In this document: positions 54,601-60,600 of the stretch, piece after piece
Numbering within the stretch: position 1 is the first letter of the stretch
Layout: the number at the start of each line of letters is the position of its first letter
Origin: Escherichia coli
Lineage (GTDB): Bacteria > Pseudomonadota > Gammaproteobacteria > Enterobacterales > Enterobacteriaceae
NCBI RefSeq assembly: GCF_002854065.1
Contig: NZ_CP024150.1
DNA: 64,000 nucleotides
Reading direction: 5' to 3' (one strand)
Program-made: the position numbers

Positions 54601-57600
54601 GCCCTGATTTTTTCCTTCATATGAATAACTCAGGTGCAATAAACATTAATAATAAAATTTACCATACCGGGGACGGTATTAAAGTCAGAGAATCAAAGAT
54701 GGTACCATTCCCATAAGGATAACAAATGGTTACATTAAAAATGGCGATAATTTTTCTGATGGAACAAATCAGAACCCCTTTCAGCTTAATATGGACAATT
54801 ATGTCACCTACAGTGTTGTTCTTTTTCCTTCATTTCAATGAAATTGAACTTCATTATGGTGATACAGCATGGCTCGGAAAACAAATATCATGGTTTGTAG
54901 GCTACATTTCTTTTTCTGTTGTTCTGTTTAATTACTGTCTGTATCTGGTCGGAAGAAGAGAAAGTGGTTTTATTGCTACCTTCGTGCATAATATGGATGG
55001 TCGACTATTATTTATTCGTTCTCAATTAATAGCCTCACTTATCATGTCTATTTTGTATGTGTTTTTTTTCATTTTAGTCGTACTAACAGGATTCCAGGCA
55101 AGTCCAGATTATCAAATAGTAATGATTATTTTAAAATCGATATACATAAATGCATTTATGATGGTTTCACTCACTTTCATGGCATCGTTCAGAGTCACAT
55201 TCCAAACAGCCAGCACTATCTATTCTGTATTAATAACTGTCTGTATGGTATCAGGAATTGTATCATTAAAATATAATGAGGGGATCGTTTACTGGATAAA
55301 TCAGGTTAATCCTATCGCCATCTATTCTACAATACTCCAGTCAGATCAGGAGTTGTCTCTGATGACGATATTTTTCTATAGTATAATGTTAATCATAAGT
55401 ATTATTTCAGCACTAACCTTCAAAACTGAGCCAGTCTGGAGTTCTCAATGACCATACCTCTTTTAGAAATCAACTCTCTGAGCTTTTCATATAAAGTAAA
55501 TTTACCCCCTGTTTTCAATAATCTGTCGCTTAAGATTGAGCAGGGAGAGTTGATAGGTCTGCTTGGAGAAAATGGAGCCGGGAAGACCACTCTTTTTAAC
55601 CTTATCAGGGGCGGAGTCAGTAATTATGAAGGGACCCTCAAGCGAAATTTCTCTGGTGGAGAATTAGTAAGTCTACCTCAAGTCATAAATCTTTCAGGTA
55701 CACTAAGGAATGAGGAGGTTCTTGATTTGATTTGCTGCTTCAATAAGTTAACTAAAAAACAGGCATGGACAGAGCTTAATCATAAATGGAATGATAATTT
55801 TTTCATTCGCTATGATAAAATAAGACGTAAAAGGACTTACACGGTAAGTTATGGAGAGAAGCGTTGGCTTATCATATCTTTGATGCTAACGCTTTGCAAA
55901 AATGCCCGTTTATTTTTACTGGATGAACCAACTGTAGGCATTGATATTCAGTACAGAATGATGTTATGGGAACTGATAAATAAGATTACCGCTGACGGGA
56001 AAACGGTATTTTTCTCAACTCATATTTTTGATGAATTAACAAGAGATAAAATCCCCTTCTATATGCTTTCAAAAAATAGTATAAATCGTTATTCTGATAT
56101 GAGTGATTTTATTCAATCCAATAATGAAACAACTCCAGAAAAGGCATTTATTAAAGAAGTTATGGGAACAGGAGACTGACACATGGATATAATAGAAAAA
56201 AGAATCACAAAACGACACCTCAGTGAAAGTGAATTATCAGGTGTAAATTATTACAATTGTATATTTGAACGAATACAGCTTGACAACTTTAACTTTCGCG
56301 ATTGTGAGTTCGAAAAATGTCGCTTCGTAAACTGCTCAATAAAGAATTTAAAACTTAATTTTTTTAAACTTATTGACTGTGAATTCAAAGATTGTTTATT
56401 ACAAGGAGTAAATGCAGCAGACATTATGTTTCCCTGTACTTTTTCTCTTGTAAATTGTGATTTGAGATTTGTTGATTTTATTAGTTTACGGTTACAGAAA
56501 TCTATTTTTTTATCCTGTCGCTTCCGTGATTGTTTATTTGAGGAAACAGACCTTCGTAAATCTGATTTTACTGGTTCGGAGTTTAATAATACAGAGTTCA
56601 GACATTCTGATTTGTCTCACTGTGATTTTTCAATGACAGAAGGTCTCGATATAAATCCTGAGATAAACAGGATCTTATCTATAAAGATACCACAGGAAGC
56701 AGGTTTAAAAATACTTAAACGAATGGGAGTGGTTGTAGGGGGATGAGGTGAGTAGACCCGCCGGTTGCCCGGACGGGCCCCTCCTCAGAACCGGACCTGC
56801 GGAACTACCGCATCCGGCTCCCGACAGATCAGTGTCCCCACACATATTTCAGAAAGAATGGAACATTGACTGAGTTCTCCATCTCGATGGGTATCCCAGC
56901 ATTTTGAGAATCAGATCCAGCTTTTCTCATGTCATTGGGTGTGGGGTTTGAAGCCCAATGGAGCGGAAACGTACGCTAAGAAGCTAACTATATGATTTTA
57001 AGTCAATAAAGTCGTGGCGTTGTTAGGCAGGTTTACGTTGATTTGATTACCGAGTTTATTAACACTGAAAGTCCCTGAAACCGCATGGCTACTGGCATTG
57101 ACGGGAAGAGTAAATAAAACCCTCGTTTTCTTTACTCACCTCTTCTGCTCAAAAAATGAACTTAGCGTACGATCTCGTACGGTTGGGCCTCAAACCCCTG
57201 GTTGACCGGCTAACGCCGAAGCTTTCGAAGAATATGCACGTGCGCGTGACGTGAAACTACTACACCATTAGAATGAAAACCATCATCCTGATCACGATAA
57301 GGAGGGCTACAGACAGTGATGTTCTGGAACCGAAACAAGAAAGATAAAGCAACTATAGCCAATGAAAAAAAACGCTTCAATCATCTGCTTTCTGTGGCAG
57401 AGAAACTACCCGTTAAGGCGCTACCAGATCTCATTCGCGCTATCGTGCGGCCAGTACAGAGTGATTTCTTGCTGGCGGTAGCTGAGGAGGGAACAGATGC
57501 CCGCCCGGATATGACCCCGCAGGAGTTCTTCTTTAAGGGACTTACCCAAATACAATCTTACGAAAAGATGAAAGAGTGTGAGATGAACGGCGCTGATTAT

Positions 57601-60600
57601 CCGTTGTCGCTGGCAAGCGACATAGTGCTGCCGTGGCCTTGGAGCCTACCACGCTATATCGATAACGTTTCACGCATTGGAACCCATAAGGGGAAGCCGT
57701 GGAAGCAAGATAAAAACAACCACTATGTTGACCTGTGGTTGCCCTGGCGTATTGGCTTTGTGCACGGGGGCAACCACTCCATAACGGCGGGTATTCTGGC
57801 CGGAGAAGGGTCGCTGATCCCGGAACACGTTTACGATATGTCATGGATGTTTGAGGGGTTCCGTGGGAATTTCTGCGATAACACCCGCTAAGCGATTCCT
57901 CCCTGACGGAAATCACTTGTTTTCCGTCAGGTCCTGCAGTTGAAGAAAATTGAATCCATAAATCTGTGATTTTTTGCGTGACAAACCCTGTCGGAATGAG
58001 AAACTGAACCGCCCCGATTTTCCTGGAGAGTGTTTTATCTGTGAACTCAGGCTGCCAGATCATTGTTTCCGATGGAAGCATAATGAGCTTTTTCTGCTTC
58101 TGCCGGAGGAGTATGGCCCAGCCTTCCCAGCAATCGTCGATTGTTATACCAGTCCACCCACGTGAGTGTGGCCAGTTCCACTTCTGCACGGTTTTTCCAG
58201 CTCTTACGGTGTATTACCTCCGCTTTGTAAAGACCATTGATGCTCTCAGCCATCGCGTTGTCATACGAGTCGCCTGTGCTCCCTGTTGATGCCAGTAATC
58301 CGGCTTCCTTAAGCCGCTGCGTGTAGGCCAGCGATACATACTGAGAGCCTTTATCGCTGTGATGGATGGTGCCAGACGGACGGCGGGCCCACAACGCCTG
58401 CTCAAGTGCATCCAGCACCAATGTCGTTTCCATGGACGATGAGACCCGCCATCCCACGATATATCCGGCAAACACATCAATGATGAACGCCACATAAACG
58501 AAGCCCTGCCATGTACTGACGTAAGTAAAATCAGCCACCCACAACTGGTCAGGACGTTCTGCCACGAACTGACGGTTTACGCGGTCACCTGCGGCAATGG
58601 TTTTCCGGCTGACGGTAGTGCGGACCTTTTTACCCCGGAGAACACCGGCAAGTCTCATAACCGCCATGAGGCGCGCCACTGTACATCTGGCCACCCTGAT
58701 TCCTTCCCGTAACAACTGACGCCAGACTTTACGCACACCGTACACCTGATGATTTTCATCGTATACGCGCCGTATCTCTCTCTTCAGCCAGTCATCGCGC
58801 TGCGCACGGGCACTGCGTTTATCAGGATGATGCCGCTGCTGCTGACAATGGTAATACGTTGACGGGGCAATATGCAGTTCACTGCATACCGGTCCGACCC
58901 CGTACTGCTCACGCAGCTTATCCAGCAGTGGCATTATTTTTTCCAGAGGCGGTCGAACTCCGCCTTCGCAAAATAAGCGGAAGCCTGGCGAAGGATATCG
59001 TTACTGCGGCGCAGTTCACGATTTTCACGTTCCAGCTCTTTCAGACGCTGACGTTCAGCGGTGGTGAGTCCACCATCACCGCCCCCGGTATCCCGCTCAT
59101 GCTGGCGAACCCAGACACGCAGAGTCTCTGGCGTACAGCCAATCTTTGGAGCAATGGAACAAATTGCCGCCCATTGTGAGTGATATTCGCCCTGACTTTC
59201 CAGAACCATACGAACTGCCCGTTGACGGACTTCGGGGGAAAAACGAGTATTTTTAGTCATCCTGTTTACCTCTTTCTCAGGAAGTTTAGTCTCCAGGATT
59301 TCCGGGGCGGTTCATTCTCTTGTTGCAGACAGCACCAGAGAAAAAAACAGACTTGAAAAATCTGTTTTTACAGACAGCCCTGATGCCGTCAGGGCGTCAA
59401 TTGAAAACATGCTTCAGGAGCTGAGAAATGAGATCGAACATCTTGATCTCCTGACCCAGGAACATATTGAAACTAACCCTGAACTAAACCAGGATTTCAG
59501 ACTCTTAACATCAATAAAATCTGTTGGTTACCTGCTGGGATTAAATATGCTGGCGATACTCAAAAGCCATTCATTCGAATCAGCAGAGCAGGCAGCAGCA
59601 TTCCTCGGTGTAATTCCGGTACCTTCAATTGCGTTTTGTAGGCTGTCAGGGATACTGTCCCACGAATGGCCACCTGTAAGCTCCAGATGACCATTTTTGT
59701 TATTCTCCACAACGAGTTAGTTCTTCTTTTCGGATCCGGCACTTCTGGGGGGGAAATCCAGCGATGGCTGGATTATGTCGTCAATTAAAAATGCGGCGAG
59801 TAGATTAGCAAATATCCACGCTTTCGCGAGTTCAGGTTCCTTTGCACGCAAAGCATCTAGGTGCAGCAAACTTTTGAGCCGCTTAAAAGCCAGTTCAATT
59901 TGCCATCGCAGACGGTGATCCTACCCTCGTAATATGGACACAGCTCTAAGCGAGGTTCTGGTTTTCAAATTATTCCGGACTTAGACCGCCACACCAACTG
60001 TGCCGTCGCCAGCGATTGTAATCACATTCGATATAATTAAACACTGTTGCCCGCATTATTTCCCGGCTGATAAAGTGTTCCCCGTGGAGACATTCCACTT
60101 TCAGTGAATGAAAGAAGCTTTCCACGCAGGCATTATCGTAACAGCAGCCCTTTGCGCTCATACTACCACGCAGATCATGCCGCTTCAGCAGCGCCTGATA
60201 ATCTACTGAACAGTACTGGCTTCCGCGGTCCGTATGAACGATAACGTTCCGGGGTCTCTTGCGCCGTCATGCGTGGCGACATTGACCGGCCAATAACGGC
60301 ACGTGACCACAGGTCAATGACCACTGCCAGATACAGCCAGCCTTCATCTGTACGTAAGTACGTGATGTCTCCCGCCCACTTCTGGTTCGGACCACTGGCG
60401 TAAAAATCCTGCTCCAGCAGATTTTCTGACACAGGCAGGCCATGTACGCGGTAACTGACCGGGCTGAACTTCCGGGAGGCCTTTGCCCTCAGCCCCTGAC
60501 GGCGCAGGCTTGCCGCCACGGTTTTTACGTTAAAGTGGTAACCCTGAACACGCAGTTCATCCGTCAGGCGTGGTTGACAGTGGTGCACCGTAACGCTGTT

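Follow-up and report, generated by a model that had tools for sequence, protein, structure and literature searches.

The stretch of Escherichia coli DNA analysed here (contig NZ_CP024150.1 of assembly GCF_002854065.1; 64,000 nucleotides, hereafter the window) belongs to a virulence plasmid of mosaic structure from enterotoxigenic E. coli (ETEC). It contains, in opposite orientations, two incomplete copies of a gene that profile and homology searches assign to the FipA fertility-inhibition family. The reading we prefer, with a probability of about 85%, is that these are relics of two different alleles, which were separately acquired on different backbone modules and separately truncated. The one on the plus strand, copy A, would have come with the microcin B17 (mcb)/IncFII module and have been interrupted after codon 180 by a Tn3-family transposon. 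The one on the minus strand, copy B, lies beside a RelE/NadS toxin–antitoxin pair and a resolvase gene, and would have been cut after codon 125 at its junction with a module carrying a NERD-UvrD helicase gene and sodC. In kind this is ordinary plasmid decay, already explained, and is neither a new gene family nor a new mechanism. The two arms of the repeat and the two reading frames are as follows.

57198–57690, plus strand: repeat arm A, 118 bp of upstream sequence and codons 1–125 of the FipA-family gene (from alignment; many IncF mcb plasmids have the identical allele, 100%)
3881–4374, minus strand: repeat arm B, 118 (+1) bp of upstream sequence and the first 125 codons of a diverged allele (from alignment)
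57316–57891, plus strand: open reading frame of copy A, 191 aa, made up of 180 native codons (to 57855) and 11 codons and a stop from a transposon inverted repeat (from the PF20457 match, the intact homologue and alignment)
3869–4255, minus strand: open reading frame of copy B, with GTG at 4255 (NCBI annotation: ATG at 4252, 127 aa), made up of 125 native codons, then QLC and a stop (from the PF20457 match and alignment)

Alignment of the two regions (MAFFT followed by global alignment) pairs 57198–57690 on the plus strand with 4374–3881 on the minus strand, with 471 of the 494 columns identical (23 differences, 95.3%). The size of the repeat is far above chance expectation. A repeat search returned it as two pairs of blocks, 3881–4295/57276–57690 (415 nt, 97%) and 4293–4374/57198–57279 (82 nt, 90%), which are one repeat interrupted by a 1-nt indel. 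An earlier description of this DNA, made from the sequence alone (the sequence-only reading), had reported an extended repeat on opposite strands and asked for the nucleotide alignment that now bears it out. The observation was essentially right, but the coordinates it gave, 57170–57891 and 3869–4420, overshoot by 28–46 bp on the upstream side and by 12 bp at the other end, since bases 3869–3880 (12 bases) and 4375–4420 lie outside the repeat. The shared upstream region exists but measures 118 bp (57198–57315) rather than about 150 bp. The second copy does diverge towards its 3' end, but homology stops at 57690/3881, 125 codons from the GTG, and not after about 127.

The differences between the copies are unevenly spread, with 12 of the 118 upstream bases (10%) and 11 of the 375 coding bases (2.9%) affected, the latter falling into six synonymous and five non-synonymous codons. 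Among PLSDB plasmids, copy B is about 95.3% identical to every other allele and has 100% matches only in NZ_AP027791.1 and NZ_AP027831.1. The latter, a sister plasmid, carries copy B only. Furthermore, each truncated allele keeps its own flanks elsewhere, in 10 other contigs for the one and 10 for the other. The independent origin of the two alleles is shown by this divergence, by the sister plasmid with a single copy and by the flanks that each retains in other settings.

The gene had been called hypothetical in the sequence-only reading, but a profile search finds it to be a member of a known family. Both copies match Pfam DUF6710 (PF20457; gathering cut-off 27 bits), copy A with 129.2 bits (E = 1.8e-37, profile positions 7–162 of 205) and copy B with 42.8 bits (E = 5.6e-11, positions 5–107 of 205). 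Four observations identify this family as that of FipA: the location of the gene in R46, the names of related proteins in UniRef, the identity between the F-type and IncN proteins and the published list of carriers. In R46 (IncN; the parent of pKM101) the sole DUF6710 gene, of 208 aa, has the MobF relaxase gene (mobF/traI) on one side and a phospholipase-D-family gene on the other. UniRef calls the exact IncN 208-aa protein ‘Fertility inhibition protein’ and gives the name ‘Fip’ to homologues 82–84% identical to the F-type allele and the window protein. Over 200 aa the product of the intact F-type allele and the R46 protein share 50% identity (E = 1e-76). Getino et al. (2017) listed FipA homologues in R46, in the Klebsiella plasmid pK245 and in an Enterococcus plasmid, and the distribution of the family found by tblastn agrees with that list.

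According to the same paper (PMC5696584), which cites Santini and Stanisich (1998), FipA of pKM101 inhibits conjugation of RP4 (IncP) via the coupling protein TraG. An intact FipA of IncN plasmids would be a protein of about 208–221 aa that blocks the transfer of a co-resident IncP plasmid through TraG, and the intact F-type allele may, by analogy, share this activity. PifC of the F plasmid and Osa of IncW plasmids resemble FipA in their proposed class of target, the type IV coupling proteins, and in their part in plasmid-versus-plasmid competition (PMC5696584). The F-type and IncN proteins belong to the same Pfam family, and the intact F-type allele has both the WLPW...GGNHS...VYDM core and the C-terminal FEIGR block. 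In the family alignment these form two conserved blocks, LWLPWRIGFVxGGNHSIxAGILAGEG...P..VYDM at residues 139–175 and TDG...R.AA.FEIGR at residues 183–212. The window differs from pKM101 and R46 in that its gene lies beside mcb/IncFII repA or RelE/NadS and not after the relaxase gene traI, and in that both of its copies are truncated.

Many backbones carry the family gene as one small cassette: in IncN plasmids it follows traI, and elsewhere it lies beside IncFII repA and a ParE toxin–antitoxin pair, near ParM, or beside IncFIB(K) RepB. Matches were found by tblastn in 1,701 plasmid records, only 672 of which cover at least 80% of the protein; many hold just a 5' or a 3' fragment. RefSeq labels these genes, including fipA of R46, ‘DUF6710 family protein’. 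No model for FipA is present among those of PADLOC and NCBIfam, and the full-text literature searched makes no mention of ‘DUF6710’.

Copy A had been taken for a complete gene of 191 aa, but it is cut at codon 180 by the inverted repeat of a Tn3-family transposon. Related IncF plasmids with mcb have the gene intact, with 666 bp and 221 aa (WP_001535733.1). Among the matches listed, about 60 IncF mcb plasmids agree with copy A at 100% identity as far as 57855, the end of codon 180, and no further. The transposon repeat therefore supplies the last 11 codons of the ‘191-aa gene’. The elements that follow are these.

57855–58006, plus strand: terminal 152 bp of a Tn3-family transposon, consisting of the 38-bp inverted repeat GGGGTTCCGTGGGAATTTCTGCGATAACACCCGCTAAG (57855–57892) and, next to it, the sequence found ahead of tnpR in copies that are not interrupted
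58007–59316, minus strand: IS3-family insertion sequence of 1,310 bp with inverted repeats TGAACCGCCCCG..., orfA at 58934–59260 and orfB at 58047–58934 (NCBIfam transpos_IS3, E = 1.9e-93)

The 38-bp repeat reads GGGG...GCTAAG. It has the length of about 38 bp and the GGGG...TAAG form by which a Tn3-family end was recognized, and its counterparts elsewhere have the adjacent tnpR/tnpA genes. Together with the next ~115 bp it recurs in hundreds of plasmids. In pKBSW16i-A the same 154 bp lie directly upstream of the genes for a resolvase and a Tn3-family transposase. A metagenome contig (L026) with an intact mcb operon also has the 191-aa allele, and there the transposon end runs without interruption into a resolvase gene. 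In the window the IS3-family element sits 152 bp inside the Tn3-family end, with its inverted repeats at 58007 and 59316. Its flanks, AAC and TTC, show no 3-bp target duplication, which points to a later rearrangement mediated by the insertion sequence. Neither the other end of the Tn3-family transposon nor the 3' remainder of fipA is present in the window. The order of events would thus be insertion of the transposon, arrival of the IS3-family element within it, and rearrangement that removed the far side.

Copy B is truncated just 5' of the helicase gene, as the sequence-only reading had said, with the junction at 3881, 113 bp before the helicase ATG at 3768. The proposal that this junction marks a breakpoint was also right. 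The NCBI reading frame of 127 aa includes three foreign codons, the native sequence ending at 3881 after codon 125. No third fragment and no missing 3' end of the gene was found by tblastn in the window, nor in the scaffold L039 described below. The sequences that meet at the junction are the following.

750–3885, minus strand: 3.1-kb helicase/sodC module that adjoins copy B and contains the gene for a helicase (NERD + UvrD) at 1978–3768 (minus strand) and sodC at 1038–1652 (plus strand) (from Pfam NERD/UvrD)
3881–3885, minus strand: the five bases ATAAG at the junction, which belong to native fipA and are likewise found at the end of the module

A full-length member of the family was taken to have about 208–230 aa with both the core and the C-terminal block, and both copies fall short of this. 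Native sequence ends at residue 180 in copy A, which keeps the first block with its core and lacks residues 181–221, including the conserved TDG...AAxFEIGR block. It ends at residue 125 in copy B, which lacks both blocks, that is, the invariant WLPW...GGNHS core and everything after it. Both truncated products are probably inactive because these conserved C-terminal blocks are missing.

The module that adjoins copy B, in which sodC encodes a periplasmic Cu/Zn superoxide dismutase, is 99.3% identical to positions 5001–8137 of pMTY14664_IncFII and has the same end there. Two unrelated genes meet this end (CAACTATGTTAAATGC...) at exactly one and the same nucleotide, in each case with the 5-bp overlap ATAAG. 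In the window the joint is with fipA (...GGAACCCATAAG|CAACTATGTTAAATGC); in pMTY14664_IncFII and two metagenome contigs it is with an ISEc8 transposase gene (...GGCGGATATAAG|CAACTATG), at positions 5001–5005 of pMTY14664_IncFII, 52–56 of contig L032 and 1353–1357 of contig L033, the counterparts of 3881–3885. Both target genes natively contain ATAAG at the joint. The shared joint could be the product of repeated microhomology-mediated joining at a fixed DNA end or the trace of a targeted element. That the module is, or once was, the end of an unrecognized element inserting next to ATAAG is something we hold to be improbable. A search for terminal inverted or direct repeats bounding it gave chance-level matches only, and no target duplication, transposase gene or dif-like site was found with it.

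Integration by XerCD at a dif site, or of a filamentous phage, was considered for this junction and is not supported, there being no properly spaced dif-like site. Such a site would have 28 bp, with an XerC arm, a central region of 6–8 bp and an XerD arm. A hint of it was seen in CTATGTTAAAT at 3877–3867, which agrees with 10 of the 11 positions of the XerD arm of dif. However, the 11-mer with at most one mismatch occurs four times where 2.8 are expected and so is not rare, and neither the window nor L039 contains a dif-like site when a 6-bp spacer and up to six arm mismatches are allowed. The second hint came from L039 (ENA scaffold ERZ28574233), where replication genes of a filamentous phage (inovirus) lie beyond sodC. 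They belong to a 3.4-kb block (11277–14634) with genes for a pII/CRI-like protein and a single-stranded-DNA-binding protein, which lies between two directly repeated copies of the 142 bp at window positions 548–689 (99.9% and 90.8% identity). The window holds one copy of this repeat, beside an IS3 element. Phage integration at the copy B junction is disfavoured because the block in L039 is a separate insertion with its own direct repeat.

The helicase itself matches the candidate defence model C3a187 (NERD + UvrD) of PADLOC over its full length (E = 1.7e-141). Homologues with 91–93% identity are found in about 1,060 E. coli chromosomes, where homology begins only at the start of the gene.

The upstream sequence shared by the two copies had been proposed to carry a common promoter. 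A promoter-like site is indeed conserved in both, as is an AAGGAG ribosome-binding site, but the promoter is a match to the consensus only. It is found at these positions.

57246–57274, plus strand: promoter-like site GTGACG-17-TAGAAT of copy A (consensus match only, 9/12)
4298–4326, minus strand: promoter-like site GTGACG-17-TAGAAT of copy B (consensus match only, 9/12)

The site is also conserved in pCFSAN004178P_02 and partly in a Klebsiella homologue. In the upstream alignment copy B agrees with pCFSAN004178P_02 for 12 bases beyond those that it has in common with copy A, which makes the left edge of the repeat a breakpoint of the mcb lineage. Rfam gave nothing relevant among RNA elements for the shared upstream region at the E-value threshold. 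Outside the repeat, directly after mcbG, positions 56747–56822 of the minus strand resemble the 3' end of a group II intron below the threshold (RF00029; 34.4 bits where the gathering cut-off is 40, E = 1e-4) and are probably an intron remnant.

It is conceivable, though quite unlikely, that copy B has been co-opted. On this account the promoter and 5' end of fipA would drive or regulate the NERD-UvrD helicase, or the 127-aa N-terminal helical fragment would be functional in its own right. Copy B still has an intact promoter-like site and ribosome-binding site, 100 bp separate the end of its reading frame from the helicase ATG on the same strand, many ETEC assemblies show strictly the same arrangement, and the match to C3a187 makes the helicase a candidate anti-phage defence gene. 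However, the helicase can do without the fipA promoter, since it keeps the same ~115 bp of its own upstream sequence in pMTY14664_IncFII, where fipA is absent, and conservation across assemblies may only reflect a clonal plasmid lineage.

The sequence-only reading had presented the gene as duplicated and the family as multi-copy on this replicon. This is misleading, the copies being diverged alleles that arrived with different plasmid modules. A recent duplication of an intact 191-aa gene within the plasmid, with the second copy cut by recombination at the helicase gene, would agree with the presence of two copies with 95% identity in inverted orientation on one replicon, but it is very improbable. 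The 191-aa frame is itself truncated, the intact gene having 221 aa, and the upstream divergence of 10% also speaks against it. So do the 100% identity of copy A to the allele of unrelated mcb plasmids, to all of which copy B is 95% identical, and the sister plasmid NZ_AP027831.1 with copy B only.

A recombination switch that inverts the 53-kb segment between the repeats, with its mcb, tra and replication regions, is highly unlikely: the 493-bp repeats are in the inverted orientation it needs, are at 95% identity long enough for RecA-dependent recombination and could support such an inversion, but each allele keeps its parental left and right flanks in 20 of 20 other contexts, no plasmid in PLSDB joins mcbG-fipA to the helicase, and no inversion chimera between the copies was found in PLSDB or in those 20 contexts.

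Several points weigh against the view that the window holds two separately acquired and now inactive relics of fipA. The F-type allele is only 50% identical to the characterized FipA, and its fertility inhibition is predicted. Copy A retains the most conserved part, the WLPW...GGNHS...VYDM core, and residual activity is possible. The 127-aa product of copy B is unchanged in about 190 assembly blocks, which may merely reflect a successful plasmid lineage. A cause for the copy B junction was not found, in the form of terminal inverted repeats, a target duplication or a remainder of the gene. Finally, the promoter is a consensus match at only 9 of 12 positions.

The loss of fipA to mobile elements has precedents. 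The gene is an insertion hotspot for transposons and integrons in IncN plasmids (PMC5027574, PMC6045649). The window resembles these IncN1 cases in that a FipA-family gene is broken by a transposon with a 5' or 3' remnant left behind, a pattern that recurs in the literature. The many plasmid records with only a partial tblastn match agree with this. It differs in that the backbone is that of an IncF ETEC virulence plasmid, and in that a Tn3-family end and the helicase/sodC module were inserted and not resistance regions.

The E. coli plasmid p2017.06.05CC_1 (NZ_AP027791.1, 109.8 kb, IncFIA/IncFII) matches both repeat regions at 100% identity. The offsets between the window and this plasmid at the two matched regions differ by 1,070 bp, so the two may not be perfectly collinear, or the window may come from a close relative. 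The cargo includes the genes of the heat-labile enterotoxin (LT), a type IVb pilus operon and many IS3-family copies. The F-type transfer region is decayed: TraI is intact (1,756 aa, 42680–47950), and TraD appears truncated at its N-terminus because its reading frame (47950–49041, minus strand) has only 363 aa. In the C-terminal part of TraD, a perfect tandem array of a 9-bp unit (TGGCTGTTG) at 48229–48387 encodes 17 QQP repeats. The idea that FipA inhibited the plasmid's own transfer, and that this selected for its loss, was dropped: the ‘MPF_I’ typing derives from the type IVb pilus operon and not from an IncI/IncP transfer system, and TraD is truncated.

The microcin B17 operon next to copy A (about 52300–54700; positions 580–2967 of L002) is broken, mcbA being followed by an IS2 insertion and a truncated YcaO gene (mcbD). 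The window retains intact mcbE, mcbF and mcbG, which serve immunity and export, and contig L026 has the whole operon intact beside the same truncated fipA allele. Other long repeats in the window, 1–426/11764–12189, 59916–60998/11770–12885 and 30886–32216/52586–53916, are copies of IS3-family elements and IS2. They comprise one inverted pair with 100% identity and direct pairs with 93–98%, and offer further substrates for rearrangement. One more feature lies near copy B.

4428–4470, no strand assigned: perfect 19-bp inverted repeat with a 5-nt spacer, outside the long repeat, between copy B and the divergent RelE/NadS genes (4508–4831 and 4880–5176); probably the toxin–antitoxin operator

Linking PF20457 to the FipA family supplies a functional name for a gene present on about 1,700 plasmid records, and its value lies mainly in better annotation. 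The two copies are decay products that mark the seams between the mcb/IncFII module, the region of the LT genes and the toxin–antitoxin/helicase module. With them the status of fipA as an insertion hotspot, observed in IncN plasmids, extends to IncF backbones, and the ETEC plasmid that carries them probably no longer inhibits rival plasmids through FipA.

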